Of a DNA stretch of 64,000 nucleotides, positions 36,191 to 58,324 are shown in pieces. A program made the position numbers and the translations under genes. Positions within the stretch are counted from its first letter, which is position 1; each line of letters starts with the position of its first letter. The DNA comes from Escherichia coli (lineage in GTDB: Bacteria > Pseudomonadota > Gammaproteobacteria > Enterobacterales > Enterobacteriaceae), in the NCBI RefSeq assembly GCF_024223415.1, contig NZ_CP100500.1. The stretch is one strand, 5' to 3'. A model generated the notes under the pieces. The model saw only the letters and a program-made list of their open reading frames with translations. It did not search any database and had not been told where the DNA came from.

Positions 36191-36247
36191 TGCGTTCATG
36201 CACCACTGGAAGATCTGAATGTCTTCCAGCACACATCGCCTGAAAGA

Positions 36248-36575: not shown

Positions 36576-36580
36576 TTGAT

Positions 36581-36832: not shown

Positions 36833-37083
36833 AACTAATCTGGTCTGAGGAATCATGGGACGATTATCTGTACTGGCAGGAAACAGATAAGCGAATTGTT
36901 AAAAAGATCAATGAACTTATCAAAGATACCCGCAGAACGCCATTTGAAGGTAAGGGGAAGCCAGAACCCCTGAAACATAATTTGTCAGGTTTCTGGTCCC
37001 GACGCATTACAGAGGAGCACCGTCTGGTATACGCGGTTACCGACGATTCACTGCTCATTGCAGCATGTCGTTATCATTATTGA
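36829..37083 (+). CDS. yoeB: toxin YoeB (ribosome-dependent mRNA interferase)
   Basis: 84-aa ORF recognised as YoeB. Confidence 0.9.
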
Positions 37084-37165
37084 ACAGATTCATTCATAGA
37101 ATGAATTGTCAGTTTTGATACGCTAGCGTAGCCTTATAGATCTAAGGTGTATCAGGAGATAACGG

Positions 37166-37990: not shown

Positions 37991-38035
37991 ACGATCACGC
38001 CAGCAGGACGCCGCATACACTGCAAGGGGGCGTGT

Positions 38036-38965: not shown

Positions 38966-39231
38966 AGAAAAATTATTATGGCAAGCCTCTCATTCTCTTG
39001 TCATTTCCCCCCCATTTAGGCACAATGCGCCGCTGTCAAAAAATGACTAAAAACCGACGTTTCATCAGCGTCGGTTATTTTTTGCTTCAAACCAATCATT
39101 CATACCAAGAGGCCGGGCTTCGTACCGGATAGATATTTACTAAAAATCGACAGTTGTTGTCGCTGAGGAATCCAAAAAAATGGGGCAATTTTTTGCTTAC
39201 GCGACGGTTATCACCGTAAAGGAGAATGACC

Positions 39232-40590
39232 ATGTCGCATAACGTTACTCCAAACACCTCTCGCGTGGAATTGCGTAAAACGCTTACGTTAGTTCCGGTT
39301 GTAATGATGGGTCTTGCCTATATGCAGCCGATGACGCTGTTTGATACTTTTGGTATCGTTTCAGGCCTCACGGATGGTCATGTGCCGACAGCCTATGCGT
39401 TCGCATTGATTGCGATCCTGTTTACGGCTCTGAGCTACGGGAAGCTGGTTCGCCGCTATCCTTCTGCTGGCTCTGCATACACTTACGCCCAGAAATCCAT
39501 TAGCCCGACTGTCGGCTTTATGGTGGGTTGGTCTTCTCTGCTCGACTATCTGTTCGCGCCGATGATCAACATTCTGCTGGCGAAAATTTATTTTGAAGCT
39601 CTGGTGCCTTCCATCCCATCGTGGATGTTTGTGGTGGCGCTGGTGGCCTTTATGACCGCCTTTAACCTGCGTAGTCTGAAATCTGTAGCGAACTTCAACA
39701 CTGTAATCGTCGTGTTGCAGGTAGTGCTGATCGCGGTGATTCTGGGCATGGTTGTTTATGGCGTATTTGAAGGTGAAGGCGCTGGTACGCTGGCGAGCAC
39801 TCGTCCGTTCTGGTCTGGCGATGCGCATGTTATCCCGATGATTACCGGGGCGACAATCCTGTGCTTCTCCTTTACCGGCTTTGACGGCATCAGCAACCTG
39901 TCGGAAGAAACCAAAGATGCAGAGCGCGTGATCCCGCGTGCGATTTTCCTGACCGCGCTGATCGGCGGCATGATCTTCATCTTTGCAACTTACTTCCTGC
40001 AGCTGTACTTCCCGGATATCTCTCGCTTTAAAGATCCGGATGCGTCACAGCCTGAAATCATGCTGTACGTTGCGGGTAAAGCGTTCCAGGTTGGCGCGCT
40101 GATCTTCTCCACCATTACCGTACTGGCGTCTGGTATGGCGGCGCACGCAGGTGTTGCGCGTCTGATGTACGTAATGGGTCGTGACGGCGTGTTCCCGAAA
40201 AGCTTCTTCGGTTATGTTCACCCGAAATGGCGTACTCCGGCGATGAACATCATCCTGGTTGGCGCGATTGCCCTGCTGGCAATCAACTTCGACCTGGTAA
40301 TGGCAACGGCGCTGATTAACTTTGGTGCGCTGGTGGCGTTCACCTTTGTTAACCTGTCGGTCATCTCGCAGTTCTGGATCCGTGAGAAGCGTAATAAGAC
40401 GCTGAAAGATCACTTCCAGTATCTGTTCCTGCCGATGTGTGGTGCGCTGACCGTTGGTGCGCTGTGGGTTAATCTGGAAGAAAGCTCAATGGTTCTGGGT
40501 CTGATCTGGGCTGCTATCGGTCTGATTTACCTGGCTTGCGTCACCAAGAGCTTCCGTAACCCGGTTCCGCAGTACGAAGACGTAGCATAA
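39232..40590 (+). CDS. plaP: APC-family amino acid/polyamine permease (putrescine importer PlaP-like)
   Basis: ORF 39226..40590; start at [16 protein letters not shown] gives about 452 aa; polytopic membrane protein. Confidence 0.85.
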
Positions 40591-40768
40591 TCATCTTTTC
40601 TAATAATCAACCGGAGTCGAATGAACAGTTGGCTCCGGTTTTTTTATTCTTTTTTATCGACATCCTCATTAATAACCATTTGTTCTAATTTAGAGAATTT
40701 GGTTATTGGTCTGCATTCCACCAGTCATGAATAATTTCCCTATTAACATTCATCTGGTTAATTAATTT

Positions 40769-41729
40769 ATGTTTTCAATGATATTAAGCGGGCTAATTTG
40801 TGGTGCTCTGCTGGGATTTGTCATGCAGCGTGGGGGTTTTTGCGTTAATTCAGGCGGGCCTACTGACTTACGAAGCCGGGGCGTTCCCGTGGCTTGGTAC
40901 TGTTATAGGTGGGTATATCTTCGGGCTGGGAATTGTTCTGGCGGGTGGATGTGCCACCGGGACCTGGTATCGCGCGGGTGAGGGATTGATCGGCAGTTGG
41001 ATCGCGCTTTTCACTTATATGGTGATGAGTGCGGTGATGCGTTCTCCACACGCCAGTGGTTTAAATCAAACCTTGCAGCACTACACTACTGAACATAACT
41101 CTATTGCTGATACTTTTAATTTGTCTGTGTGGCCGTTGGTTGCCGTTTTGCTGGTGATAACGCTCTGGGTGGTGATGAAAGAGTTGAAGAAGCCAAAACT
41201 GAAAGTCGCGACCTTACCGCCGCGCCGAACCGGGATCGCTCATATTCTGTTTGAAAAACGCTGGCATCCCTTTGTCACTGCTGTACTCATCGGTTTGATT
41301 GCGCTTTTAGCCTGGCCCCTGAGTGAAGCAACCGGACGCATGTTTGGGTTAGGAATCACTTCCCCAACGGCCAATATTCTGCAATTTCTGGTCGCGGGTG
41401 ACGTGAAATACATTAACTGGGGCGTTTTCCTGGTGTTAGGGATCTTCGTGGGGTCATTTATTGCAGCCAAAGCGAGCCGTGAGTTCCGCGTTCGCGCAGC
41501 TGATGCACAAACAACAGTACGTAGCGGGTTAGGTGGTGTACTGATGGGCTTCGGTGCCAGTATTGCAGGTGGTTGCTCTATCGGTAATGGACTGGTTATG
41601 ACTGCAATGATGACCTGGCAGGGCTGGGTTGGCCTTGTATTTATGATTCTCGGAGTCTGGACTGCGTCCTGGCTTGTGTATGTTCGACCGCAGCGTAAGG
41701 CGCGACTGGCAACTGCTGCGGCAAATTAA
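40769..41729 (+). pseudogene. yeeE: yeeE-like (YeeE/YedE family thiosulfate transporter) gene split across two reading frames
   Basis: ORF 40769..40981 carries the N-terminal TM segment; ORF 40800..41729 (+1 frame, no ATG) carries the rest including both GGC(A/S)xG motifs; the span is 961 nt, not a multiple of 3. Confidence 0.6.
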
Positions 41730-41742
41730 GTAAGGTGTAAAG

Positions 41743-41970
41743 ATGGCGATTAAAAAGCTGGATGTGGTGACGCAGGTCTGTCCGTTTCCACTCATAGAAG
41801 CAAAAGCAGCACTGGCAGAAATGGCCAGCGGCGATAAGTTGGTAATTGAGTTTGATTGCACCCAGGCAACTGAAGCAATCCCACAGTGGGCGGCAGAAGA
41901 AGGACATGCCATCACCGATTATCAGCAGATTGGCGATGCTGCGTGGAGCATCACCGTTCAAAAAGCCTGA
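41743..41970 (+). CDS. yeeD: TusA-like sulfurtransferase
   Basis: 75-aa ORF with the TusA active-site CPxP motif (VCPFP). Confidence 0.85.
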   Translation: MAIKKLDVVTQVCPFPLIEAKAALAEMASGDKLVIEFDCTQATEAIPQWAAEEGHAITDYQQIGDAAWSITVQKA

Positions 41971-41975
41971 CCCAA

Positions 41976-42006
41976 CATTGTCCTCCGCCGTATCAGCGGC
42001 GGAGGC
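41976..42006. terminator. bidirectional hairpin between convergent yeeD and sbcB
   Basis: Inverted repeat CCTCCGCCG-TATCAG-CGGCGGAGG. Confidence 0.45.
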
Positions 42007-42012
42007 TTCAAA

Positions 42013-43440
42013 CTAGACGATCTCTTCCGCGTACTGCCAAAGCGCTTTTAACAGCGCCACTTTTTCTTTATCGTCGGCATACTGCTGCGCCAGCATCTGA
42101 ATCTCTTCTGCATAGCCTTGTAAAAACTCGGGTGTGAATACCTGGCGGCGGTGCTCCAGCCAACGTTGCTGCTCGGCATAATCCAGCGTCCCCGGGAAGT
42201 TGCGTGCCCGATAATTGAACAACAGCTTTTCAATCCGTTTATCAACAAAAGTGATATCCAGTGCCGGTAAATTACGCGGCTCGGTTTCCAGCACAATTTT
42301 CATTGCTGCACGATCGGCGTCACTGAAAAAGCCGTTATAAAGCTGTGCATCCACGTTATCTGAAGGCGTAAACGGTTCGGCTTCCGCGAATATCGCCACC
42401 ACTTTTTCACGCACTTGCGGATTTTCACGCAGAATTTTTAGGTTATCGAGGCAATGCTGACGATTAATTCCCAGTCGGTCGGCATCTTCCGGGCGTAGCG
42501 TATTCGCCTGGGCCAGTACCGGACATTTATTGATGTGCACCAGCTTAACCGGAACGGCGGCGTTATCGCCAAGATCGGCTTTTGCGGTATATAAACGCTC
42601 GCGCAATGTGTCGCTATCCAGCTCCAGTAATGGCGAAATGTCTCCTGCCAAATCCACCATAATTACGGCATTGCGATTTTCAGGATGCCACGCCAGCGGT
42701 GCCACCCAGCTGGTATTGCCACGCCATGCCCCAAACATTCCGGAAACGTGAACCAGGGGTTTCATCTGCGGAACATCAATCAACGCCATCAGTTTGTGTT
42801 TATTACGATGGGTAAAGAGATAATCAAACAGACGTGGCTGACGCGTTTTTACCAGTTTCGCCATCGCAATAGTGGCGTACACATCAGCCATCGCATCGTG
42901 GGCGTTGCTATGTTCAATACCATTCGCTTTGGTTAAATGCTCAAGGCGAAAGCTCGGTAGACCGTCATCATTTTCAGGCCAGTTTATTCCTTCCGGGCGC
43001 AGGGCATAACAGGCACGCATAACATCCAGTAAATCCCAGCGCGAGTTATCATGCTGCCAGCTCCAGGCGTAAGGATCGTAGAAATTACGATAAAAAACGT
43101 TGCGTGTGACTTCGTCGTCGAAACGCACATTGTTGTAGCCCAGAATACAGGTCTTCGGTACGGTAAAAAGCGAGTGAATACGGGCGGCAAACGTGGCTTC
43201 GTTTTCTCCTTTCGCCCGTGCTTCCTGCGGGGTAATACCGGTAATTAATACTGCTCCAGGCTGGGGTAAATAGTCATCCGCGGGCTTGCAGTAAAAGACT
43301 TCGGGTTCGCCGATGACATTGAATTCGTTATCAGTGCGAATGGCTGCGAACTGTGCAGGGCGATCTAACGCGGGGTGCGTTCCAAAGGTTTCGTAATCGT
43401 GAAACAAAAAGGTAGATTGTTGCTTACCGTCATTCATCAT
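42013..43440 (-). CDS. sbcB: exodeoxyribonuclease I
   Basis: ORF 42013..43512; likely start at MMNDGKQQSTFLFHDYETFG; DEDDh exonuclease. Confidence 0.9.
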   Translation of the reverse strand: MMNDGKQQSTFLFHDYETFGTHPALDRPAQFAAIRTDNEFNVIGEPEVFYCKPADDYLPQPGAVLITGITPQEARAKGENEATFAARIHSLFTVPKTCILGYNNVRFDDEVTRNVFYRNFYDPYAWSWQHDNSRWDLLDVMRACYALRPEGINWPENDDGLPSFRLEHLTKANGIEHSNAHDAMADVYATIAMAKLVKTRQPRLFDYLFTHRNKHKLMALIDVPQMKPLVHVSGMFGAWRGNTSWVAPLAWHPENRNAVIMVDLAGDISPLLELDSDTLRERLYTAKADLGDNAAVPVKLVHINKCPVLAQANTLRPEDADRLGINRQHCLDNLKILRENPQVREKVVAIFAEAEPFTPSDNVDAQLYNGFFSDADRAAMKIVLETEPRNLPALDITFVDKRIEKLLFNYRARNFPGTLDYAEQQRWLEHRRQVFTPEFLQGYAEEIQMLAQQYADDKEKVALLKALWQYAEEIV

Positions 43441-43648
43441 TAGGTTAAATCCGTTATTTCTGCTGTCTGCCAGAGTATCAAATATCACCGTGCTAATCAG
43501 CTTTAGCGCCACAATTTGGCAGCGAGTGGCAACAGATCATGTCAGATAAAAATGAGAGGGTAGTCACATTTTCTTGCACTTTATTCCAGCCAGTTCATAA
43601 GTATTTCCGTAAAAAGAACAGCTATTTGAAACTCCTGAGGGTTTGCTG

Positions 43649-44815
43649 TTGAAACGCCGTCTTATTATTGCTGCTTCTTTGTTCGTTTTTAACTTATCGT
43701 CTGGTTTTGCGGCGGAAAACATTCCTTTTTCACCTCAGCCTCCAGAGATTCATGCCGGGTCCTGGGTATTGATGGATTACACCACCGGTCAGATCCTCAC
43801 CGCGGTTAATGAGCATCAACAGCGCAATCCCGCCAGCCTGACAAAGCTGATGACGGGTTATGTCGTGGATCGCGCTATCGATAGTCATCGCATTACGCCA
43901 GACGATATTGTCACCGTGGGGCGCAATGCGTGGGCGAAAGATAATCCGGTGTTTGTCGGTTCTTCACTGATGTTTTTGAAAGAGGGCGATCGCGTATCGG
44001 TACGTGATTTAAGCCGTGGTTTAATTGTGGATTCCGGAAATGACGCTTGTGTTGCTCTGGCTGACTATATTGCCGGTGGGCAACGGCAGTTTGTTGAAAT
44101 GATGAACAACTATGCCGAGAAGCTGCATCTCAAGGATACGCATTTTGAAACAGTGCATGGTCTGGATGCACCTGGCCAGCATAGCTCGGCTTATGATTTA
44201 GCTGTGCTTTCTCGCGCTATCATCCACGGCGAGCCCGAGTTTTATCATATGTACAGTGAGAAAAGTCTCACCTGGAACGGTATCACCCAGCAAAACCGTA
44301 ACGGGTTGTTGTGGGATAAAACCATGAATGTTGACGGCCTGAAAACGGGTCATACTTCTGGTGCCGGGTTTAATCTCATTGCTTCGGCTGTAGATGGGCA
44401 GCGTCGTCTCATTGCAGTGGTAATGGGGGCTGACAGTGCAAAAGGTCGTGAGGAAGAGGCAAGAAAATTACTGCGTTGGGGGCAACAAAACTTTACTACG
44501 GTGCAAATTTTGCACCGTGGGAAAAAGGTCGGAACGGAACGCATCTGGTATGGCGATAAAGAAAATATCGACCTGGGAACGGAACAAGAGTTCTGGATGG
44601 TGCTACCGAAAGCCGAAATTCCACATATCAAAGCCAAATATACCCTTAATGGTAAAGAGCTCACCGCGCCAATTAGCGCCCATCAGCGGGTAGGGGAAAT
44701 TGAACTTTACGACCGTGATAAACAGGTGGCGCACTGGCCGCTGGTTACCCTGGAATCTGTCGGGGAAGGCAGCATGTTTTCTCGCCTGAGTGATTATTTC
44801 CACCATAAGGCCTGA
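43649..44815 (+). CDS. dacD: D-alanyl-D-alanine carboxypeptidase (PBP6b)
   Basis: ORF 43643..44815 has a non-ATG start (TTG); signal peptide and SxxK motif (ASLTK). Confidence 0.85.
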   Translation: MKRRLIIAASLFVFNLSSGFAAENIPFSPQPPEIHAGSWVLMDYTTGQILTAVNEHQQRNPASLTKLMTGYVVDRAIDSHRITPDDIVTVGRNAWAKDNPVFVGSSLMFLKEGDRVSVRDLSRGLIVDSGNDACVALADYIAGGQRQFVEMMNNYAEKLHLKDTHFETVHGLDAPGQHSSAYDLAVLSRAIIHGEPEFYHMYSEKSLTWNGITQQNRNGLLWDKTMNVDGLKTGHTSGAGFNLIASAVDGQRRLIAVVMGADSAKGREEEARKLLRWGQQNFTTVQILHRGKKVGTERIWYGDKENIDLGTEQEFWMVLPKAEIPHIKAKYTLNGKELTAPISAHQRVGEIELYDRDKQVAHWPLVTLESVGEGSMFSRLSDYFHHKA

Positions 44816-44899
44816 CCTTTCTTTTGCAGCAGACTGGCAGGAGTGCGAGTCTGCTCGCATAATCAACACTCATTCCTTGTGGTTTTAATATTGCAACTA

Positions 44900-44919
44900 T
44901 ACTGTATATAAAAACAGTA
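44900..44919 (+). promoter_or_regulatory. LexA box (SOS operator) upstream of sbmC
   Basis: ACTGTATATAAAAACAGTA matches the CTGT-N8-ACAG consensus about 15 bp upstream of the sbmC start; coordinates approximate. Confidence 0.7.
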
Positions 44920-44933
44920 ATAATGGAGGCGTC

Positions 44934-45407
44934 ATGAACTACGAGATTAAGCAGGAAGATAAACGTACCGTTGCAGGTTTCCATCTCGTTGGCCCGTGGG
45001 AACAGACGGTAAAGAAAGGTTTTGAGCAGTTGATGATGTGGGTAGATAGCAAAAATATTGTGCCGAAGGAGTGGGTTGCTGTCTATTACGACAATCCGGA
45101 TGAAACACCCGCCGAAAAATTACGCTGCGACACCGTCGTGACGGTACCGAATAACTTTACGCTCCCCGAAAACAGTGAGGGCGTCATTCTGACAGAAATT
45201 TCAGGTGGTCAATATGCGGTGGCGGTGGCTCGTGTAGTCGGTGATGATTTTGCTAAACCCTGGTATCAGTTCTTTAATAGCCTCTTGCAGGACAGTGCTT
45301 ATGAAATGTTACCAAAGCCCTGCTTCGAGGTTTACTTGAACAATGGCGCGGAAGATGGGTACTGGGATATCGAAATGTATGTTGCGGTGCAGCCAAAACA
45401 TCACTAA
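44934..45407 (+). CDS. sbmC: DNA gyrase inhibitor SbmC (GyrI)
   Basis: 157-aa ORF recognised as SbmC. Confidence 0.9.
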
Positions 45408-45604
45408 TTCATCTCAGGGCGGTGTGTTGACGCGAAGACCACTCTTTTTTTGAAAACGAAAAGAGTAAGATGCGCCTTTCAATTTTTTCGCTCCTGCCGG
45501 GAAATTACACTGTTCCCGGTTTGTCCGTCGGATAATTCAGAGGCGCGCCTTCTGGCCGACAGATGAGTTATGAGCGCTTTTAATCTTCATTACGGAGTTT
45601 CTGC

Positions 45605-46663
45605 GTGCGTGCCGATAAGTCATTAAGCCCGTTTGAAATCCGGGTATACCGCCATTACCGCATTGTGCATGGTACTCGGGTCGCGCTGGCATTCCTGCTC
45701 ACTTTTCTCATTATCCGCCTGTTTACTATCCCGGAAAGCACCTGGCCGCTGGTCACCATGGTGGTGATTATGGGGCCAATCTCGTTCTGGGGGAACGTTG
45801 TCCCTCGCGCATTCGAACGTATTGGCGGTACGGTGTTGGGGTCGATTTTAGGTCTTATCGCTCTGCAACTGGAGTTAATCTCGTTACCGCTGATGTTAGT
45901 CTGGTGCGCGGCGGCTATGTTTCTTTGCGGTTGGCTGGCGCTGGGCAAGAAACCGTATCAAGGTTTATTGATTGGGGTGACGCTGGCAATTGTTGTTGGT
46001 TCCCCGACAGGTGAAATTAATACGGCGTTATGGCGAAGCGGCGATGTGATCCTCGGCTCTTTACTGGCAATGTTGTTTACCGGTATCTGGCCACAACGGG
46101 CGTTCATCCACTGGCGCATTCAACTGGCGAAAAGTCTGACCGAGTATAATCGGGTCTATCAATCTGCATTCTCACCGAACTTACTCGAACGCCCACGTCT
46201 GGAAAGCCATCTACAAAAACTCCTGACCGATGCCGTGAAAATGCGTGGGCTGATTGCGCCCGCCAGCAAAGAAACCCGTATTCCAAAATCGATATATGAA
46301 GGTATCCAGACCATTAACCGCAATCTGGTTTGTATGCTGGAGTTGCAAATCAATGCGTACTGGGCCACGCGCCCCAGCCATTTCGTGTTATTGAGCGCGC
46401 AAAAACTTCGTGATACCCAGCACATGATGCAGCAAATACTGCTGAGCCTTGTTCATGCGCTGTACGAAGGTAATCCGCAGCCGGTTTTTGCCAATACGGA
46501 AAAATTGAACGATGCTGTGGAAGAGCTGCGTCAGTTGCTCAATAACCACCATGACCTGAAGGTAGTGGAAACACCAATCTATGGTTATGTGTGGCTGAAC
46601 ATGGAAACGGCGCATCAGCTTGAGTTGCTATCGAATCTGATTTGCCGGGCCTTGCGCAAATAA
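45605..46663 (+). CDS. yeeA: inner membrane protein YeeA (FUSC-like)
   Basis: 352-aa ORF, N-terminal membrane domain plus soluble C-terminus; non-ATG start. Confidence 0.8.
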   Translation: MRADKSLSPFEIRVYRHYRIVHGTRVALAFLLTFLIIRLFTIPESTWPLVTMVVIMGPISFWGNVVPRAFERIGGTVLGSILGLIALQLELISLPLMLVWCAAAMFLCGWLALGKKPYQGLLIGVTLAIVVGSPTGEINTALWRSGDVILGSLLAMLFTGIWPQRAFIHWRIQLAKSLTEYNRVYQSAFSPNLLERPRLESHLQKLLTDAVKMRGLIAPASKETRIPKSIYEGIQTINRNLVCMLELQINAYWATRPSHFVLLSAQKLRDTQHMMQQILLSLVHALYEGNPQPVFANTEKLNDAVEELRQLLNNHHDLKVVETPIYGYVWLNMETAHQLELLSNLICRALRK

Positions 46664-46834
46664 TTCCTGAACTTCAGAATCATCTTGCTGCTGCTTCGAT
46701 TCAGCAAGGATAAAGGGTATGATAGTGAAAAGGGATAAAAGCATTGTCATCTGCGGCAGCTATGAGTAATGTTGGCCCTAACGAATAGCGGTTGCTTAAA
46801 CGAATCCGACTCTCACATTATCAGGGGTATAAAA

Positions 46835-47164
46835 ATGGAAACTACCAAGCCTTCATTCCAGGACGTACTGGAATTTGTTCGTCTGTTCCGTCGTAAGAAC
46901 AAACTGCAACGTGAAATTCAGGACGTTGAGAAAAAGATCCGTGACAACCAGAAGCGCGTCCTGCTGCTGGACAACCTGAGCGATTACATCAAGCCTGGGA
47001 TGAGCGTTGAAGCAATCCAGGGCATCATCGCCAGCATGAAAGGTGACTATGAAGATCGCGTTGACGATTACATCATCAAAAATGCCGAGCTCTCCAAAGA
47101 ACGCCGCGATATCTCCAAAAAGCTGAAAGCTATGGGCGAAATGAAAAACGGCGAAGCGAAGTAA
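46835..47164 (+). CDS. yeeX: UPF0265 protein YeeX
   Basis: ORF 46769..47164; start at [14 protein letters not shown] gives 109 aa. Confidence 0.85.
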
Positions 47165-47179
47165 TTCCCGTTTTATTCA

Positions 47180-47208
47180 ATGAGGGTTGCCCGGCAACCC
47201 TCATTGCT
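47180..47208 (+). terminator. hairpin after yeeX
   Basis: Inverted repeat AATGAGGGTTGCC-CG-GCAACCCTCATT immediately after the yeeX stop. Confidence 0.45.
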
Positions 47209-47264
47209 CATTGATTCTTATCTGTGTATCACCGTCATCATTCTCATCTGAGAACCAATCGAAA

Positions 47265-47450
47265 TTAACAACAGCCTTCTTCTGTATGCAGCAAGGCAAA
47301 AAGTTCTGTAACTCCATTGTTATTAACTGCACTGGTTACTAACACGTTGTGCGCTCCAGCTTCCCGTAACCAACTTTTCACCAAAGATATTTGTTCCATG
47401 CTGGCTAAATCTGCTTTGGTTACTACTCCAATGACCGGGTGATTCATGGC
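47265..47450 (-). pseudogene. truncated EutP/PduV-like GTPase C-terminal fragment (yoeF-like)
   Basis: Only the C-terminal about 60 aa (…NHPVIGVVTKADLASMEQISLVKSWLREAGAHNVLVTSAVNNNGVTELFALLHTEEGCC) is EutP-like; the upstream part of ORF 47265..47621 is antisense to the IS66 remnant. Confidence 0.5.
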
Positions 47451-47499
47451 CCGGTAGGGCGTTTTTACCTCTAATTCCTGCTTCAGCACTGAGATTCCT

Positions 47500-47680
47500 G
47501 CTTGTTGCCGGAAAAGCAGGCACCTGCCGTCTGAACGGTATCGATCCGGAAGCGTATCTGCGCCATATTCTGAGCATACTGCCGGAATGGCCCTCCAACC
47601 GTGTTGACGAACTCCTGCCATGGAACGTAGTTCTCACCAATAAATAAGCGTCAATACGGTGCTCCGTTGACGCTTACTTT
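47500..47680 (+). mobile_element. IS66-family right-end remnant (transposase C-terminus plus terminal inverted repeat)
   Basis: Plus-strand translation …GIDPEAYLRHILSILPEWPSNRVDELLPWNVVLTNK* parallels the C-terminus of the intact transposase at 61821..63356; downstream …CGCTTAC matches the IS66 IR core; coordinates approximate. Confidence 0.55.
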
Positions 47681-47879
47681 AATCCGTTTTCTGAGCTTAG
47701 ATTTTTCTGTTCCTACCCAGACCGTGGATTTGGAATTCATTTTTTGTCAGGTCAATGCTAATCGTTAAAACGGCCATAACGCACCTCCACTGGAAGGTTT
47801 ATCAGTAATATCCTACCGTTGCTTCATGGTCGGGGCGTCCATTCCATTATTATCGGTTTTCCTTTCTGTTTATAAATGA

Positions 47880-47907
47880 AAACGCCAGCTGTATTCAGGC
47901 TGGCGTC
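47880..47907 (-). terminator. putative terminator downstream of yeeW
   Basis: Minus-strand hairpin CGCCAGC-loop-GCTGGCG followed by a T-run. Confidence 0.4.
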
Positions 47908-48061
47908 AGGGGAAATGAAGCCTGTTGAGTGAGATTCACCGGTTCTGGTGCAGAAGCTGCAGATGGCGCAGGGTAAGGACATCTTCTCTTGCCTGCTTAA
48001 TACAGGACAACAGTGCTGTTTCTGTGGTTAATGGCACTATACCCTGCATCACTGCATTGTC

Positions 48062-48256
48062 TTACAGCAACTGGTGAGGGCTGGCATAAGTTGCCGGTGT
48101 TTCGGTAGAGTCACGGTCATCCACCACGCGGAGTGAATAACCTTTTTCAGCGGCCTTATTAATCAGTTCAGTGATATTAACACCATCAATGTCAACGGCA
48201 ATGTGCCCCATATCCAGCGCCTGTACGTTAACGCTGTCGGCTTCCAGTGTCATCAT
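48062..48256 (-). CDS. yeeW: prophage protein YeeW
   Basis: 64-aa ORF recognised as YeeW; start overlaps the cbtA stop. Confidence 0.7.
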   Translation of the reverse strand: MMTLEADSVNVQALDMGHIAVDIDGVNITELINKAAEKGYSLRVVDDRDSTETPATYASPHQLL

Positions 48257-48626
48257 TTCGCCTCCGGATACTTACCCAGGGTAATGTTATTTACCGTTCT
48301 GTAATTGTCGCGGGTCATCAGGCCGGTCGCCCTGCGAGCCCGGAGGATATCGATGCTGTTTATTAACTGAGAGCGGGTACAGGCGCTGAATCCCGGCTGG
48401 TCGGTAGCACCAGCGCGTATTTTTCCACGAGAAAGTTCACCGCATCACACAGTGAAATGCCTGCCTCAATATGCTGCTCAATCACACGTTCATCGGCAAA
48501 AGGTGTGTCATTCAGTGTGAGGCCATAGTGCTGGTCCAGCAGTCGGGACAGCAGTATCTGCCAGATTTCAACAGGAGACGGGCGAGAACTGGTCGCCTGC
48601 CCGGGTAATACAGGTAATGTTTTCAT
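48253..48626 (-). pseudogene. cbtA: frameshifted type IV toxin cbtA (yeeV)
   Basis: ORF 48363..48626 matches CbtA through …[10 protein letters not shown] and then diverges; the expected C-terminus ([40 protein letters not shown]) reads in another frame. Confidence 0.7.
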
Positions 48627-48714
48627 ACTGAAGATTTTCCTGATATGCAGATATAAAAATGGAAAAGTGGCGTGGTGAAAACACCAGGCCGTAGCAGAAG
48701 GCTATTCTGGAGAG

Positions 48715-49083
48715 TTAATTTTTCATTTCGGGCGTCGGATAAACAGCCAGATAAACGTAACCACAACTGCTGAGGGTATCGGCTTTGCAGGTCAGCCCTT
48801 TTGCATACAGCGTGACGGTATGCTGATGGCGGGGATTCAGTTCACCGCTGGTGAGCATGAGTTCCAGTTGTTTCATCAGCAGCGGAAAGGCCTGGTCCAG
48901 GTGGTACGCATCTGCATCGCTGAACAGGCCTCTGATACCGGCGCGGTCGGCAAGGTAATGCAACCGGTTACCCTCCTGCACCAGACGTGCCCCGAAACAG
49001 GGCGTCACGGTGCAGGGCAGCCCCCACCAGGGGCGGTCGTGATTGTCGTCGGGAAGTGTTGTCCCGGGGAGTGTGTCTGACAC
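48715..49083 (-). CDS. cbeA: antitoxin CbeA (YeeU)
   Basis: 122-aa ORF recognised as YeeU/CbeA. Confidence 0.85.
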   Translation of the reverse strand: MSDTLPGTTLPDDNHDRPWWGLPCTVTPCFGARLVQEGNRLHYLADRAGIRGLFSDADAYHLDQAFPLLMKQLELMLTSGELNPRHQHTVTLYAKGLTCKADTLSSCGYVYLAVYPTPEMKN

Positions 49084-49156
49084 GATAAAATCCTTACAGA
49101 AAATCGGCTAAGAATGGTCCGGTAGTGGCGATAATTCTGCTCATCAGAATTCCCAC

Positions 49157-49378
49157 TCAGTTCAGGGTGACGCTCATCAGCCGGACATACGGACCAAAAC
49201 TGTCCTTACGGCGTTCAGCAAACACGGCCAGCACACCGGGAATATCCTGCACTTCACGACCGGTATACGCTTCAGCACTGCCGTGCCAGCGGTATTTACC
49301 GGTACAGAACGGAAAAAGACGGGATGTCGGATGTTGTTGGTGAATACGCATGGCTTCACCACGGGTGATAATTTTCAT
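49157..49378 (-). CDS. yeeT: prophage protein YeeT (DUF987)
   Basis: 73-aa ORF recognised as YeeT. Confidence 0.8.
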   Translation of the reverse strand: MKIITRGEAMRIHQQHPTSRLFPFCTGKYRWHGSAEAYTGREVQDIPGVLAVFAERRKDSFGPYVRLMSVTLN

Positions 49379-49440
49379 AATGGGATACCTCTGAAGACAG
49401 AAGATAAAAGTGAAAACAGGTGTGATGTGGTTGTGAAGGG

Positions 49441-49917
49441 TTAAAGCAGACCATGTTCGGCAAAGGAGAAAACCTGGTTGCCACCGACTATCAGATGGTC
49501 CGGCACCCGGATATCCACCAGGCCCAGTGCCTGTACCAGACGTTCCGTGATAAGGCGGTCTGCCTTACTGGGTGTGACTTCACCGGAGGGGTGATTGTGT
49601 GCCAGCACCACGGCAGCGGCATTGTGGTACAGGGCGCGTTTAATCACTTCCCGGGGATGGACTTCCGTGCGGTTGATGGTGCCGGTAAAGAGGGTTTCAC
49701 CGGCAATCAGTTGATTCTGGTTATTCAGATACAGCACCCGGAATTCTTCACGCTCCAGTCCCGCCATGTTCAGAATCAGCCATTCCCGTGCTGCACGGGT
49801 GGAGGTGAAGGCCACGCCGGGTTCATGAAGATGGCGGTCCAGGGTTTTCAGGGCCCGTTGAATGAGGCTGCGCTCGCCGGGCGTCATCTCTCCGGGCAGA
49901 AAGGAAAGTTGTTGCAT
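49441..49917 (-). CDS. yeeS: RadC-like JAB-domain protein
   Basis: 158-aa ORF with JAMM motif (HNHPSGEVTPSKADRLIT). Confidence 0.8.
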   Translation of the reverse strand: MQQLSFLPGEMTPGERSLIQRALKTLDRHLHEPGVAFTSTRAAREWLILNMAGLEREEFRVLYLNNQNQLIAGETLFTGTINRTEVHPREVIKRALYHNAAAVVLAHNHPSGEVTPSKADRLITERLVQALGLVDIRVPDHLIVGGNQVFSFAEHGLL

Positions 49918-49932
49918 TGTGCTTCTCTCAAT

Positions 49933-50412
49933 TCAGTCGATGATGCGCATAATGGCGCTGCATTCCGGATGCTGCAGGGCGTAATCCCGCAACCGGTAAT
50001 AATGGACCGTCATGGCATAATTCTCCGTACGACAGGCATGATGACTGTACGTCATCAGACAGGCGGCAATACCGGCGGCTTCCGGGCTCATTTCTGCGCG
50101 GTTACCGTTCATGGCATTGAACAGTACCCATGTTTCGTCATCATCGTCATCCGGTTCGGGTGCCATAAATGCCCCGCCGTTGTTCAGGGTGTACAGATTC
50201 CAGATACCACCGCAGTAGTCTTCGCACAGACGGTCCATCCAGCCGAAGACACGGGGCTCCAGGGTCACCCACTGTGGAATGAGGCCAAAATGCTGCGGCC
50301 AGAAGCTGATGCGCTGTTCATCAGGGACGAGGCTGGCAACCAACTGAGGCGGATTATTCTCTGGTGTTGTAGCTGAATAAATTGTGGGGGTATTCTGAGA
50401 AACGGTTTTCAT
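49933..50412 (-). CDS. antirestriction protein (ArdB/KlcA/YfjX-like)
   Basis: 159-aa acidic ORF (DDDDDE stretch) of the type found in CP4-type islands. Confidence 0.7.
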   Translation of the reverse strand: MKTVSQNTPTIYSATTPENNPPQLVASLVPDEQRISFWPQHFGLIPQWVTLEPRVFGWMDRLCEDYCGGIWNLYTLNNGGAFMAPEPDDDDDETWVLFNAMNGNRAEMSPEAAGIAACLMTYSHHACRTENYAMTVHYYRLRDYALQHPECSAIMRIID

Positions 50413-50493
50413 GAGATAACTCCTTAAATAACAAATAAATGTGTGTTTTTCAGGAACGAAAGCTGAATGATTCCCTCACTCAGGGAAACGGCA

Positions 50494-51315
50494 TCAGCGC
50501 AGGCTCTCCAGCATCGTTTCTGCCATCACCCACAATGCGCGATTGAGCTTAATGTCGGTATCAATGCTGTGAATGGCCCGGGTATGGATACGTTTTCCTT
50601 TTGCACTGCGACCGGAAATCCCGCCTTTCAGCATATTCTCCTGGATGGTCTGATATGCGCTCCACAGGTCCTTACCGTAATCCTCCCGGCGTCGCGGCGT
50701 CAGAATGTCGGCGGTGGTGACGGGCTGATGTTCGTCACCATAACGGTAAGTCAGTGCCGCCTGTGCCAGCGCCTGGCGTGCCGGTGGCGGCAGGACCAGC
50801 GACTGCATGGCATCACGCTTCTCCTCTATCCGGTCAAACACGCCCACCACCTCGTAAGCCCCTTCAATGACTCTGTCCACCACATTTCCCCGGTGCGGAA
50901 CACGCACTTCCCCCAGAGACTGACCACAGACGCAGCCGTTCTGGCAGACGAACCTGAAGTAACCCGGCAGCATCTGGTAGCTGGAGGTACCGTCATGAGA
51001 GTTGAGCAGAATAATTTCAGGGACATGTTCTCCGTTTATCTCTCCGGCCCGCCGCAGACGCAGCATGTGTTTGGTATATTCCCGGCGGCTCTGGTCGCGC
51101 ACACGGGTCTGGCAGGCGAAGAACGGCTGAAAGCCTTCCCGCTGCAGATTTTCCAGGACGGTAATGGTGGGAATGTACGCATACCGTTCACTGCGGGAGG
51201 TGTGCCGGTCTTCCCCAAAAATACTGGGTACATGGCGTATCAGTTCTTCATGTGTCAGCGGACGGTCACGGCGTATCTGGTTTGCAGCATAACCAAAACG
51301 ACTGGCTAATCGCAT
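50494..51315 (-). CDS. DUF932-family prophage protein (YfjQ/YafZ-like)
   Basis: 273-aa ORF of the family that follows the GTPase gene in CP4-type islands. Confidence 0.75.
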   Translation of the reverse strand: MRLASRFGYAANQIRRDRPLTHEELIRHVPSIFGEDRHTSRSERYAYIPTITVLENLQREGFQPFFACQTRVRDQSRREYTKHMLRLRRAGEINGEHVPEIILLNSHDGTSSYQMLPGYFRFVCQNGCVCGQSLGEVRVPHRGNVVDRVIEGAYEVVGVFDRIEEKRDAMQSLVLPPPARQALAQAALTYRYGDEHQPVTTADILTPRRREDYGKDLWSAYQTIQENMLKGGISGRSAKGKRIHTRAIHSIDTDIKLNRALWVMAETMLESLR

Positions 51316-51363
51316 ACTTTGCTCCTTATCGGTGGTTAAGATTTACTGGTGCAATAAATGAAA

Positions 51364-51392
51364 AAAGCCGCGTCTCCCGGAGAAGACGCGGC
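51364..51392 (-). terminator. putative rho-independent terminator after the secreted-protein genes
   Basis: Minus-strand hairpin GCCGCGTCT-loop-AGACGCGGC followed by TTTTTT. Confidence 0.45.
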
Positions 51393-51535
51393 CTGACGGG
51401 TGAAATGAATAAGGTTTATTGTCTGAGAGGCCTTTCACTGGCGAGCCACGCATTAAGCGGCTTTCCGGTAACAATGGCTGGGGCTGTATTTACCTTTGAT
51501 ATTAATAATGTGCAGAGAAACGCATGGTTTACTCC

Positions 51536-51946
51536 TTAGATTTTAAGTTTGTCCTGGGCTACAACGACAGGTTTTCCGGATGTGTCGATGACTCCTACCG
51601 TCGGTACGCCATTTTTGATTTCGAAGAACGGTTTGTTGCTACCTGAGCACAGTTGATTGTCCCCGTATTCAATCATTTGTGCTTTCCCGGTTTTCAGGTT
51701 AACTACCGAGACAGTGTAGTCGTAGCACCAGGCACCACCACGTTCAAGCACGAAAACATAGCTGTTATCTTTATAGTTGAACTGATTCTTTGTCTGGCAA
51801 TTCATACCGTCAATTTCGGTACAGGAAAACGCTTCTGTAGTATTAACGTATTTGATGTTATTTGGCAGTTTTACTTGTTTCGCAGTAGCGAAGACAGAGA
51901 ACAGAATAGTTACAGCAACGAGTAAAGTTTTGATAAAAGTTTTCAT
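51536..51946 (-). CDS. hypothetical secreted protein
   Basis: 136-aa ORF with a typical Sec signal peptide (MKTFIKTLLVAVTILFSVFATA), four Cys, low GC. Confidence 0.5.
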   Translation of the reverse strand: MKTFIKTLLVAVTILFSVFATAKQVKLPNNIKYVNTTEAFSCTEIDGMNCQTKNQFNYKDNSYVFVLERGGAWCYDYTVSVVNLKTGKAQMIEYGDNQLCSGSNKPFFEIKNGVPTVGVIDTSGKPVVVAQDKLKI

Positions 51947-51961
51947 GATAGACTCCTTAAA

Positions 51962-52450
51962 TTAGTTAAACGCAGCTACGTAGTTTTTCACCAGATACGC
52001 GAATTCATGCACGCCAATTTCACCGAACCAAACCAGGTAGGCCGGGTCATCTAAACCAAAGTAACGGTAGCCAACAACTTCATGGGTTTTTGGGTTATAG
52101 AGTGTTACGATAAAGTCCCAGCCGCAGGTATTGGCTTTGCAACCGTCGCCCTGGAGCCAGACTGTATCGTTAATGTTTACTGGCGTGATACCTCCACCAG
52201 GGCCATCCATATAGCCGCCTTTACCGAACATGCCGCTCAGTCCGACCGGTTTTAATGCTTTGTCGATAGCGGCTTTGTAGGTAGCGTCACCTTCGTACAA
52301 CTCGTACGTTGATGGACACGCTCCAGGTTGTTCAGCCCAGGCTTCCGGGTTACAACTAAGTGCTTGTTTTACGGTAGCCGCTTCTGCGTTAAAGTTAAAG
52401 CCCGTGAACAGAACCGCCAGAAATAACATAAGGGTATGTAAACGTTTCAT
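51962..52450 (-). CDS. hypothetical secreted Cys-rich protein
   Basis: ORF 51962..52753; probable start at MKRLHTLMLFLAVLFTGFNFNAEA (signal peptide) gives about 163 aa; six Cys in the mature part. Confidence 0.5.
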   Translation of the reverse strand: MKRLHTLMLFLAVLFTGFNFNAEAATVKQALSCNPEAWAEQPGACPSTYELYEGDATYKAAIDKALKPVGLSGMFGKGGYMDGPGGGITPVNINDTVWLQGDGCKANTCGWDFIVTLYNPKTHEVVGYRYFGLDDPAYLVWFGEIGVHEFAYLVKNYVAAFN

Positions 52451-52780
52451 TGTAAATATTCTTCCGTTGTAAATGGCGCTGGAAAATTTCTCATCAGTGA
52501 AACCTTCCGGAAGTTTCCCCCCCTTGTATGATGTATATCGCCAGTATTTTATTTCATCCCGGCTGTAATTTTTATATTCCCCGGCACGTGCAATAACGCT
52601 GACCAGAGATATAAGGCTCATTAATAACTTTACAGGTAATTTCATAATTAAATTTCCAGTGAGTGAATTGACAGGTGAGGGGTAAAACTTTCTCTCAGGT
52701 AATATATATCTGAAAATATTTTCAATAACACCAGACAGGAAAAACACCACCACAGGCGGTGGCGTTTCTTTGGGGCGTCT

Positions 52781-53851
52781 TTATTTAATCCGGGCCATCG
52801 CGTTTCTCAGTGCCAAATCTGCCTCTTCCGTTATATCCAGGCTTTTCTGCAATACCGCCTCTGACCGGGTCAGTGCCTGACGTGCTGCCAAGGGGTTCCG
52901 GATATGCTCCATCGTCAGCATCGTGTCTTCATAGCCCTGCTGACGCCAGATGTCGGTATGTGCCGATGTAAAACTGAGCAGACCGCCACTTTTGCCTTCT
53001 TCCCCTGTGTGTTTCAGCCTTTTCCGGGGACGGATTTCAAGGATTGTGGTGTCCGGAAAAGCCCGGCGATCCCATAAAGAACCGTCACTCAGATGCGTCA
53101 CAATCACCATATTGCATCCGGCATCGACCAGAGGCGTTACAGGGGTATTTCCCTGCATATTTCGCCATCCTCCCATCCCACCATCACCGAACATTGTCCC
53201 CTGAACCTCACGGGGATGGAACAACAGGGGCAGTGCGGCTGACGCAAGCAGAGCCTCTTTCTGCTGTCCGCGGGGCAGACTCTGGATATGCTGAAAAACG
53301 GCGTTTTTCGTGGTTCCGGCACCCAGTTCAGCACGAATGCAGTCAATAATATCCTGCATGCCCCCTTCTGTGGGGTACAGCGACACATACAGCGGTAGCC
53401 CGTCTGCCAGAGCATCAGTATCAAGATAATGATCCATCAGCGCTGTCAGAGGCTCATCTGACAACAGCGGCTGAGCCATCGGATTGTCGAAGCCGTTGAT
53501 TATCGATATATGGCGAAGAAGTATCGTAAGCAGTGCTCCTGCACGTCCGGGGATCTGGCAGAGGTTCATTGCCTGGAACAATTTTTTCAGCAATGAAAAG
53601 TAAACCGATCGGTTTACCGACAGCACCTGATTATTCCCCAGATGATCCCAGAGCGCCTCCAGGCGTACGGCAGCTTCTGACAGATCGGGAGAGGCCGCGA
53701 TAATGGCACCATTGAATGCGCCAATGCTGGCCCCTGAAACCATGCTGATCTGTGTACCACACTCTGCCAGTGCCTTAACCACTCCCGCCTGATAAGCGCC
53801 CACCGCCCCGCCACCGGACAGCACCAGCCCCGTTTTCATTTCTGTACTCAT
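52781..53851 (-). CDS. patatin-like phospholipase
   Basis: 356-aa ORF with glycine-rich oxyanion loop (SGGGAVGAYQAG), GxSxG nucleophile motif (GASIG) and catalytic DGG (FGDGGMGG); no signal peptide; start overlaps the upstream gene's stop. Confidence 0.8.
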   Translation of the reverse strand: MSTEMKTGLVLSGGGAVGAYQAGVVKALAECGTQISMVSGASIGAFNGAIIAASPDLSEAAVRLEALWDHLGNNQVLSVNRSVYFSLLKKLFQAMNLCQIPGRAGALLTILLRHISIINGFDNPMAQPLLSDEPLTALMDHYLDTDALADGLPLYVSLYPTEGGMQDIIDCIRAELGAGTTKNAVFQHIQSLPRGQQKEALLASAALPLLFHPREVQGTMFGDGGMGGWRNMQGNTPVTPLVDAGCNMVIVTHLSDGSLWDRRAFPDTTILEIRPRKRLKHTGEEGKSGGLLSFTSAHTDIWRQQGYEDTMLTMEHIRNPLAARQALTRSEAVLQKSLDITEEADLALRNAMARIK

Positions 53852-54753
53852 GCAGCCCCCTTCTGAAATATTTCATCGACCATACTTTCAGAGAGGCGTT
53901 CTGCAGAGCAGAGGCGAGGCATGCGAACCGGTAAGTGTTCTGCAGCCTGCGTGGTTGACCAGATCACCGGATGCTGCTCTTCACTGCACCAGTCTCCCAG
54001 CCAGTTAATCGCGTCATGCCACTCGTTATCTGCCTGCTCCCGGCCCTGACCACCAAGCCAGTCCAGAGTGTTCAGACGCACGGTTGCACTACCGCCACTC
54101 TCCTGTGCCATCTGCGTTAATGCTTTATGTCTGAGAATATCCAGTAGCTGGTTAACCTGGCCTGTTTCGCTCTGACGTATCACATCACCAAACGCGCCCC
54201 AGCGAAGCTCTTCAAGTGCCACATAACAACGTCCGGCAGGGGAAAATGACGCATATCGCCCGGCGCTCCACCATGAGAATATCTGCTCAAGATGTAACTG
54301 CGCCCGCTGAACCTGGTCAACACGGTGGAGTTTTTCTTCAAGATGATTCAGTTTATGGTGAACCTGATCGGCCAGGGTGAGTAACTGCTCCCGCGTATCT
54401 GCGGAATAATGCGCCAGCCTGGCTGTATCACTGACCAGTGAACTGACCCTGTCGTTTACCCGGGTAATCGCGTAGTTTGTGGTGGCAAGTGACGTTGTCA
54501 TCTCCGTCAGCCAGCGCAGGGACGCCTCAACGCCCTGTGCAAGCGACGCATTGATGGCATTCTGCCGTGCAGCGCCTTCGCCGGTCAGCCCCTCTTTTAA
54601 ACGCCGGAAGAACGTGCGCTCTCCGGCCGTGCGGATATGCTCCTGTGCAACATCGATTCCGTTTGCGAAATCAACCACAAATTTTTCAGGAAGACAGGTG
54701 AGTACCTGACATACCCGGTTATCAGCAATTTGTTGAATAAATGGTGAAGTCAC
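53848..54753 (-). CDS. hypothetical protein (partner of the dynamin-like GTPase)
   Basis: 301-aa ORF, predicted alpha-helical, GTG start overlapping the stop of the upstream gene (GTGA) with a GGAGA RBS about 10 nt upstream. Confidence 0.55.
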   Translation of the reverse strand: MTSPFIQQIADNRVCQVLTCLPEKFVVDFANGIDVAQEHIRTAGERTFFRRLKEGLTGEGAARQNAINASLAQGVEASLRWLTEMTTSLATTNYAITRVNDRVSSLVSDTARLAHYSADTREQLLTLADQVHHKLNHLEEKLHRVDQVQRAQLHLEQIFSWWSAGRYASFSPAGRCYVALEELRWGAFGDVIRQSETGQVNQLLDILRHKALTQMAQESGGSATVRLNTLDWLGGQGREQADNEWHDAINWLGDWCSEEQHPVIWSTTQAAEHLPVRMPRLCSAERLSESMVDEIFQKGAA

Positions 54754-57146
54754 AGCATTGTCTCCAGCTCTTCCCTCAGCGCCTTACTGTCAGTAATGAG
54801 CTCAGGAACCCTTTCATTTAATGCCTGAAGTCGCCCGGTAAGTCGTTCCTGCGCCTGCTGATCGCGTTTATGATCTTCAGAGCTCTGAATCAGCGTGTTA
54901 CGCAGTTGTTCAACTTTCTCCCTGAATGCGCAGAAAAAGGCATCGATTTCCTGGCGGACGGGCTGGTTAATATCCTGCTCAATGGATGCCTGCAGCTCCC
55001 CGAAATATGCCCGGGTCAGTGACATAACTTCCTCTCTGACCTTGTTGATATTGATCACGCTGCGACTCACATCCTCGTCATAGTTTTCCCAGCCCAGGTC
55101 ACTGGTGCCAAACCATCGACAAACGGTTCCCCATACGCCACTCTGCCGACGGCGACGGGTGACGGTCTCCGTTCTTTCCTCCATAAGCGCACTCAGATTT
55201 ATTTTTACCGCGAGCCGGGTCTGTAACTGGCTGACTGCCGGAAAACTGATTTTTACGGTAAAGCCCTCATCCTCCAGGCGGGCATTGATGCGACCGGCAA
55301 TGTTTTCTGTGGCGTACAGGGCCGTGCCACGAAAACCTGTTTCAATCCCGCTGACGATTTTCTCCAGCTCAGGCCGGAACTGTGCTTCAGCCTCACGGTG
55401 CAGGCTGGTCACGGTCGATTCGATTTGCGTCATCAGTTCAAGGGCTTCCCTGCGATCACTGAATTTTATTTCGGGGCTGTCCGGGGCAAAATCTCGTTTC
55501 CTGTAATCCTCCCGGCCCTGGTTGTTGATACCGGACCATTGAGAAATTTTCCCCCATAATCCGGACTGAGACCTTCGTTGTTCTGCGTCTTCTTCCTCCA
55601 GCATTTGCTGTTCTTTGCGTTTACCGCTTCTGAAATAGTCATTCAGCTCCTCTTCCAGTGAGGTGCAGACCCCCGTCAGTAATTCCCGGGTTTTAGTATC
55701 GATCTCCTCCATGGCCATTCTGACATCAGTGGTCATCTGCTCCTGACAGTCCGCGATTTCCCGGATATCCGCAAGCAGGCTGGTGATATGCGACTGCAGT
55801 GACTGAATGCTTTGCTGTAGCCCCTGATGGCGTAACAACAGGTATTCACTGATATTTTCTGCATTCTGCATCAGTTTTGCGGCGGCAGAGTCAACCGCCA
55901 GTGCCGCAGCTCTGGAATGTGAGCTCTGTATGACTTCCGTTATCAGTTGATCGATAAGTGAGCCTTCCCACAGGTCTGTCGCCCCTTCAGTTGCCAGTTC
56001 ACTGTCTTTACAGACGTATTCTTTTTTCATGCAACCGAAGGCACCTCTGATAAAATCATCGACCCAGGCTTCATCAACAGGAAGGGTTCCGTTTTTCCGT
56101 AACTCATGAAGCGCACGGTTAGCCAGGTATGCCTGGCGTGAGGATCCGGGATAAACGCGGGAGGCGGGCAGCACATCGCTGTTCAGCATTGCCGGAACTT
56201 TCTGGCGTACGGCATCTGCCCCATCGCCATTGCGGTCTTTCTCATCAAATTTATTGACCAGTACAAACAGGCGGCCGGCTGATACGTCAGCAATGGCATT
56301 AAGCTCTTTACGGACGTCTTCATCCGCTTTTGAGTTCATCTGGGTGTAATCCATCACAGCCAGAACCGCAGAGGCTTTCTGCAGTTGATCCCGCATCATC
56401 ACTTCCATCTGCGGTTGTCCGGCCTCATTAGGGCCGGGGGTATCCAGCAGTGTGAGTGTTCCCTGGCATGCATCCATCCCCACCAGATGGCTGAATTCCA
56501 CGTCGATCACCGGCAGTTTCTGCACTTCTGCGTATTCATCAAAAGGAAATTCAGTCCCCATTGCCGCAGCAAGACGAACCAGATCGTTTAACGATGCCAG
56601 TCCGGTAAAGATTTCCTCCTCCCCGTGGTATTCATTTTTGAGCCAGCCATCATCCGTCAGAATATCCAGCAGTTCGCGGGTATCCCCGGTTTGCTGCAGG
56701 GTCTGTGCGACCTGCTGTCCTGCCGGGGTGGCGAGTTTTTCCTGCAGTGTGATTAATAAATTGCGGACAGGCTGAATATGTTCCAGATGGAGAACCGGCT
56801 CAGTTTTTCCGGGAACGTGGCGGATGAGCGTCGGTACAGAGGTCATGGGGCGGTTACGGTTAGGCAGAATTTCCTGCCCCACAATGGCGTTGATGGTGGT
56901 TGATTTGCCTGCTTTCATCGTGCCGACAACAGCCAGCACCATCTCCCTGCGGGCGGTTTTGATTTGTTCGCCCTCCAGCTCCTCAATTCTTTTCAGTGCT
57001 TTCTGTTTATCAAAAAGCAGTCTGTTTTCGTTCTTACTGTCAGATAACACATCTGGCTCCTCAACCATTTGCCGGAGCAGATTAATGTTCAGTTGCAAAA
57101 GTCGGTCGGCTTCATCACAAAGCAGGGCGATGTTCTTTTCGTGCAT
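54750..57146 (-). CDS. dynamin-like large GTPase
   Basis: 798-aa ORF with G1 P-loop (GTMKAGKST), switch-I Thr, G3 (LLDTPG) and G4 (LVNKFD) in the N-terminal third, then long helical/coiled-coil regions. Confidence 0.8.
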   Translation of the reverse strand: MHEKNIALLCDEADRLLQLNINLLRQMVEEPDVLSDSKNENRLLFDKQKALKRIEELEGEQIKTARREMVLAVVGTMKAGKSTTINAIVGQEILPNRNRPMTSVPTLIRHVPGKTEPVLHLEHIQPVRNLLITLQEKLATPAGQQVAQTLQQTGDTRELLDILTDDGWLKNEYHGEEEIFTGLASLNDLVRLAAAMGTEFPFDEYAEVQKLPVIDVEFSHLVGMDACQGTLTLLDTPGPNEAGQPQMEVMMRDQLQKASAVLAVMDYTQMNSKADEDVRKELNAIADVSAGRLFVLVNKFDEKDRNGDGADAVRQKVPAMLNSDVLPASRVYPGSSRQAYLANRALHELRKNGTLPVDEAWVDDFIRGAFGCMKKEYVCKDSELATEGATDLWEGSLIDQLITEVIQSSHSRAAALAVDSAAAKLMQNAENISEYLLLRHQGLQQSIQSLQSHITSLLADIREIADCQEQMTTDVRMAMEEIDTKTRELLTGVCTSLEEELNDYFRSGKRKEQQMLEEEDAEQRRSQSGLWGKISQWSGINNQGREDYRKRDFAPDSPEIKFSDRREALELMTQIESTVTSLHREAEAQFRPELEKIVSGIETGFRGTALYATENIAGRINARLEDEGFTVKISFPAVSQLQTRLAVKINLSALMEERTETVTRRRRQSGVWGTVCRWFGTSDLGWENYDEDVSRSVININKVREEVMSLTRAYFGELQASIEQDINQPVRQEIDAFFCAFREKVEQLRNTLIQSSEDHKRDQQAQERLTGRLQALNERVPELITDSKALREELETML

Positions 57147-57363
57147 TATTTAACCTTCCTAAGACGCATTTTCATGACAACCACGGAGGAGGTCATTTAC
57201 TACAAACGATCGTTTATAACGATCGATATGATAGTAACGATCGATACATTCTATTAACTTGAGAAACACAACGCAAGGGGACAACCCGGGTATGGCTGCG
57301 TTTGCATAGTGTTTTCATGGAGTTAAAAATCTGTAACAACAGCCTGGTACATCACCACCGGGT

Positions 57364-58280: not shown

Positions 58281-58324
58281 CGGAAAGGTGGCGGGGGATT
58301 CACGGAAATAATATCTGTCTGAAA

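Follow-up and report, generated by a model that had tools for sequence, protein, structure and literature searches.

A widespread single-base deletion interrupts the cbtA toxin gene beside an intact cbeA antitoxin gene in Escherichia coli

The cbtA (yeeV) toxin gene in the window, i.e. the whole 64,000-nucleotide stretch of the Escherichia coli chromosome analyzed here, has lost a single G in codon 74 and is out of frame from that point onwards, while the adjacent cbeA (yeeU) antitoxin gene is intact. The broken allele is already known: it is annotated in RefSeq as a frameshifted pseudogene, and it is an ordinary variant of the gene within the species. It probably represents a fixed loss-of-function form of cbtA with cbeA retained, that is, a case of decay in a type IV toxin-antitoxin system in which the toxin was the first component to be lost.

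The affected gene belongs to the conserved array yeeS-yeeT-cbeA-cbtA-yeeW, which adjoins tmaR (yeeX), yeeA and sbmC, and this is the position of the cryptic prophage CP4-44. The first-pass annotation of this DNA had placed the gene pair in a cryptic prophage, and the neighboring genes identify which one. In K-12, the CbtA/CbeA (YeeV/YeeU) type IV pair of CP4-44 (b2005/b2004) occupies the same locus and the same array; the window differs from it in that a break at codon 74 of the toxin ORF leaves the antitoxin half alone intact. The cbeA gene lies upstream and ends 88 nt before the cbtA ATG. A tblastn search of the whole window revealed no second copy of either cbtA or cbeA. Positions 1..63963 of the window are at least 99.9% identical to the chromosome of E. 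coli Combat11I9, and the identity to 55989 and to O104:H4 strains is 99.3% (24 kb queried). The features of the locus are as follows.

49441..49917, minus strand: yeeS, intact, an upstream gene of the array
49157..49378, minus strand: yeeT, intact, an upstream gene of the array
48715..49083, minus strand: cbeA (yeeU) antitoxin gene, 122 aa, GTG start, intact
48253..48626, minus strand: cbtA (yeeV) pseudogene, 374 nt against 375 in K-12, with one gap and one substitution in the alignment
48593, minus strand: substitution G34A (A12T) relative to K-12 cbtA, common to the window and O111 RM9322
48420..48424, minus strand: run of five A in cbtA (gene nt 203-207)
48406..48407, minus strand: site of the single-base deletion in cbtA, the K-12 G at gene nt 221 falling between these two positions
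48363..48626, minus strand: 5' ORF left of cbtA, 87 codons, comprising 73 native CbtA residues and 14 out-of-frame residues
48363-48365, minus strand: TAA stop of the 87-codon ORF
48253..48405, minus strand: stranded 3' part of cbtA, codons 75-124 and TGA, shifted to the -1 frame and 100% identical to K-12
48062..48256, minus strand: yeeW (DUF5983 N-terminal domain), 64 aa, intact

The toxin ORF had initially been described as matching CbtA for about 73 residues before losing frame, with the expected C-terminus encoded in another frame downstream and a single-base indel as the apparent cause. Each part of this description holds, and translation and tblastn fix the matching part at exactly 73 residues. 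The first frame, read from the ATG at 48626, encodes these 73 CbtA residues (to EKYALV) followed by 14 unrelated residues and a stop, giving a product of 87 aa in total, and the frame read from the third base encodes the last 50 residues of CbtA and its stop. With K-12 CbtA as the tblastn query, the identity is 98.6% for residues 1-73 and, in the second frame, 100% for residues 75-124 (joint E = 1e-65), an agreement that chance does not explain. The alignment with the intact cbtA of K-12 MG1655 (b2005, 375 nt), which had been proposed as the means of locating the indel, contains exactly two differences. The first is the absence of the G at gene position 221, which in K-12 belongs to codon 74 (CGT); the surrounding sequence is CTGGTGC[G]TACC, and the deleted base is not part of a homopolymer. 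The second is G34A, which replaces alanine by threonine at residue 12. The loss of this one G in codon 74 would end translation 14 codons further on and yield an 87-aa product devoid of the CbtA C-terminus.

The original cbtA stop TGA (48253-48255) overlaps the ATG of yeeW in an ATGA arrangement, and any translational coupling between the two genes would now be lost, with ribosomes stopping 107 nt upstream of the yeeW start. The yeeW gene need not rely on such coupling, because it has a GGAGG of its own 5' of its start codon.

The truncated product is still recognizable as a member of the CbtA family, as it matches PF06755 with 127.4 bits (cut-off 25) over profile positions 1-73 of 112; it does not provide the single ORF of about 124 codons that spans the whole profile (1-112). 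The part lost from the 87-aa product amounts to the C-terminal 51 residues, or 39 of the 112 PF06755 positions. When 38 homologues (124-126 aa; Escherichia, Klebsiella, Citrobacter, Enterobacter, Serratia and Raoultella) were aligned, conservation in the lost part was on a par with that in the retained part (15 invariant columns out of 51 versus 23 out of 73), and the lost part contains the invariant block S91-I-D-I-L-R-A-R98. Such conservation of the C-terminal part implies that intact toxins need it, and the conservation of what was lost suggests that the truncated product is probably no longer toxic.

The antitoxin gene, which had been called full length, is indeed an undamaged ORF of 122 codons. 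Its product, 99.2% identical to K-12 CbeA with a single difference (D108G), matches PF06154 with 178.5 bits; at residue 108 it is K-12 that deviates, the window sharing its residue with the five remaining genomes of the comparison. The cbeA protein annotated by PGAP in Combat11I9, O111, E. coli C and O145 is WP_001285585.1, and at the DNA level the cbeA of the window is identical to those of E. coli C and O145. An intact cbeA lies directly upstream of the toxin gene, with the location and gene order of CP4-44, but the two partners are probably not both functional, as the truncated toxin ORF leaves an orphan antitoxin and a toxin remnant.

Previous work on CbeA makes the loss of the toxin before the antitoxin plausible. 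CbeA does not bind CbtA; it stabilizes and bundles the polymers of FtsZ and MreB (Masuda et al. 2012, summarised in PMC5624674), and it also counters other FtsZ inhibitors (PMC5624674). The operon lacks autoregulation and the antitoxin genes can be deleted (PMC5371832). Two further pairs, YkfI/YafW of CP4-6 and YpjF/YfjZ of CP4-57, belong to the same families as CbtA/CbeA (PF06755 and PF06154) and their toxins have the same targets, with antitoxins that cross-neutralize (PMC5371832, PMC5624674); CbeA, YafW and YfjZ each neutralize all three paralogous toxins (PMC5371832). These paralogous pairs differ from the pair studied here in that they reside at other loci, share 58-62% protein identity with CbtA, and are absent from the window. 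Since CbeA bundles FtsZ and MreB, does not bind the toxin and cross-protects against the paralogues, losing the toxin first would be harmless or at least tolerated. The antitoxin would then have been kept as a protein that acts on FtsZ and MreB and that also neutralizes YkfI and YpjF, and its retention may remain useful against these paralogous toxins. As CbeA acts without a cognate toxin, the persistence of cbeA would need no special explanation.

An alternative to simple inactivation is that the deletion allele is a natural separation-of-function variant, whose 87-aa product, folding as the N-terminal helical domain, retains an attenuated or FtsZ-only inhibitory activity (perhaps directed at MreB as well) that is held in check by cbeA and would account for the retention of the antitoxin gene. 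Several observations are consistent with such residual activity. In an AlphaFold2 model of CbtA built from a 39-sequence alignment (mean pLDDT 62.5), only residues ~11-70 are predicted confidently (block pLDDT means of 74-89), with helices at 18-34, 46-54 and 59-69, and residues 78-124 have pLDDT values below 50; the retained residues 1-73 therefore coincide with the confidently predicted three-helix core. A sequence search of the PDB yielded no solved structure of any CbtA relative (best E-value 0.07). Both R15 and F65 are within the retained part, and it has been reported that R15C abolishes CbtA's interaction with MreB and F65S that with FtsZ, the double mutant alone being non-toxic among the mutants of these two residues (PMC5624674). 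The interaction with FtsZ is assigned to the amino-terminus of CbtA in the section of a review that cites Tan et al. 2011 (PMC3920263). Moreover, neither the 5' ORF nor cbeA is damaged in any of the five other genomes with the deletion allele that were inspected. C-terminal truncations of YeeV are reportedly still able to cause cell elongation, which also speaks for an active remnant.

Nevertheless, the 51 residues that are missing hold the most conserved block of the family, invariant from S91 to R98, and the 14 foreign residues, together with the absence of a third of the domain, may destabilize the product. The 5' ORF bears no signature of selective maintenance, since the stranded 3' part has decayed no further than it has, and the retention of cbeA can be explained without a cognate toxin by the ability of CbeA to cross-neutralize the paralogues. 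A separation-of-function allele is thus improbable, and the same low probability applies to any residual activity of the 87-aa product, which on the basis of the model and the retained interaction residues would probably be directed at FtsZ.

A different possibility is that near full-length CbtA is still produced from the deletion allele through leaky or programmed -1 ribosomal frameshifting or through transcriptional slippage, and this appears very unlikely. Both the 0 and the -1 frame are open over cbtA nt 183-264, and this zone contains the A5 run (GAA AAA T), at which a -1 slip would yield a product of 124 residues that is unlike CbtA only at positions 70-74. However, a scan of the 0/-1 overlap for X XXY YYZ found no slippery heptamer in nt 183-264. 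The A5 run, the sole stretch in this zone with at least four identical bases in a row, is not a canonical slippery heptamer, and a run of five A residues is too short for efficient transcriptional slippage. It had been proposed that a frame break shared by intact homologues would point to programmed frameshifting, but K-12, Nissle 1917 and the 38 aligned homologues, other genera included, are all single-frame. Programmed frameshifting was rejected on the grounds that there is neither a canonical heptamer nor a break conserved among homologues; since the intact family members are single-frame, the break in cbtA is a derived lesion rather than a conserved recoding site.

The deletion allele that probably represents a loss-of-function form of cbtA is widely distributed in E. 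coli. The 374-nt cbtA of the window has full-length matches of 100% identity in at least 40 genomes among those listed. A 60-nt probe placed on the deletion junction was found exactly in 1,503 records of a collection of 5,426 complete E. coli genomes, i.e. in ~28%, and the exact junction was present in 22 of 60 rows sampled at even spacing from the ranking, in agreement with this count. The corresponding 61-nt probe for the intact K-12 junction matched 1,940 records exactly; paralogous loci account for some of these. Carriers of the deletion allele include O157:H7, O111, O145, E. coli C and strains of many hosts, and the five carriers inspected (O111, O157:H7, E. coli C, O145 and Combat11I9) all have it at this same locus, accompanied by an intact cbeA. 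In a public protein collection, both versions of the 87-aa product, A12 and T12, are represented, each on at least 1,000 contigs, and the names given to them include "toxin of the YeeV-YeeU toxin-antitoxin system".

Against this distribution, an error of sequencing or assembly in this particular record, behind which the real cbtA would be intact, is exceedingly improbable and was rejected: single-base indels are a frequent assembly artefact in general, but the deleted base is outside any homopolymer, the 87-aa product is itself found on this many contigs, and some 1,500 complete genomes, sequenced independently in many laboratories and on many platforms, have the identical junction, so resequencing would not restore the frame.

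The existing annotation of the locus agrees with this assessment. NCBI's PGAP independently treats cbtA as a pseudogene described as "frameshifted" in the five inspected carriers, among them Combat11I9, where the position equivalent to that of the window is labeled "cbtA, frameshifted". In RefSeq, the entries I3O_RS13475 (O111 RM9322), ECpv15279_RS14500 (O157:H7 PV15-279), B6N50_RS09115 (E. coli C) and CDC27_RS10430 (Combat11I9) are all described as cbtA, pseudo, frameshifted. The window carries the same deletion at the same position, and there is no difference between its allele and the RefSeq frameshifted allele; it represents the A12T sub-variant, as does O111, and this substitution does not occur in the deletion alleles of O157:H7, E. 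coli C and O145.

The history of the deletion was considered in an alignment of seven cbeA-cbtA-yeeW haplotypes, from the window, K-12, Nissle 1917, O157:H7, E. coli C, O145 and O111. Three haplotypes can be distinguished: an intact gene with G34 in K-12 and Nissle 1917, the deletion with G34 in O157:H7, E. coli C and O145, and the deletion with A34 in the window and O111. These three combinations fit a single origin of the lesion, and the simplest and most likely scenario would be a single loss of the G on a K-12-like haplotype, with the G34A substitution arising later in a sub-lineage. The deletion alleles in this alignment display low diversity, with one substitution (A12T) in the 5' part and none in the stranded 3' part, a pattern that would fit simple recency as well as purifying selection on the 5' ORF, and the start codon and 5' ORF of cbtA are undamaged in every allele examined.

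The larger segment is similarly uniform. Among six non-B2 genomes (K-12, E. coli C, O157:H7, O145, O111 and the window), the cbeA-cbtA-yeeW segment (48062..49083) varies by 1 to 6 differences in ~1,020 nt, the stretch from cbeA to yeeW in K-12 differing from the window at 6 of 1,023 aligned bases. Nissle 1917, which belongs to B2, differs from these six genomes at more than 20 sites, concentrated in cbeA. Such low diversity across strains as different as these suggests a recent spread or recombination of this segment of the island.

The practical significance of the allele is related to the choice of reference strain. K-12 is the strain in which CbtA and CbeA were characterized, and in this respect it is not representative of the ~28% of complete E. 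coli genomes mentioned above; as these genomes carry a truncated cbtA, conclusions about the CP4-44 toxin should not be transferred untested to such strains. The combination of truncated cbtA and intact cbeA is found in the major pathogen lineages O157:H7, O111 and O145. In addition, the allele would illustrate toxin-first decay in a type IV system, in which the antitoxin is independent of the toxin. If the truncated product were active, it would offer a natural reagent with which the effects of CbtA on FtsZ and on MreB could be separated, and a separation-of-function toxin of this kind would be present in more than a quarter of E. coli strains, O157:H7 and O111 included. The value of the observation beyond bookkeeping is otherwise small.

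Several other features of the window were noted in the course of the analysis. Between tmaR and yeeW (47200..48060), stacked gene fragments nearly identical to those in K-12 are present, including a 60-aa EutP/PduV-like ORF (yoeF region), a transposase fragment (yoeD) and a 31-codon DUF957 remnant, and at this edge the island seems to bear an old scar shared with K-12. A segment comprising the DUF5983 C-terminal part/ANF00264 was described as consistently adjoining cbtA-cbeA, with a suggested frameshift there (2026, PMC13294457); in the window, the DUF957 remnant is located downstream of yeeW in place of this segment.

Two further genes in the window are interrupted. The thiosulfate transporter gene tsuA (yeeE; 40769..41729, plus strand) is frameshifted near codon 25, with a 70-aa ORF that opens with the native N-terminus (MFSMILSGLICGALLGFVMQRGGFC...) and the other 309 aa in a different frame; in the near-identical Combat11I9 it is described by PGAP as "frameshifted". 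A GTPase-family gene of the CP4-44-like island (57364..58280, minus strand) is divided between two ORFs that overlap (57873..58280 and 57364..57957), is likewise "frameshifted" according to PGAP in Combat11I9, and adjoins intact dynamin-family, RdcB-family and patatin-like genes. Over its last ~37 bases (63964..64000) the window departs from Combat11I9, suggesting that a strain-specific junction lies at its edge. The island also contains an IS66-family element with tnpA, tnpB and tnpC (~61000..63400, plus strand).
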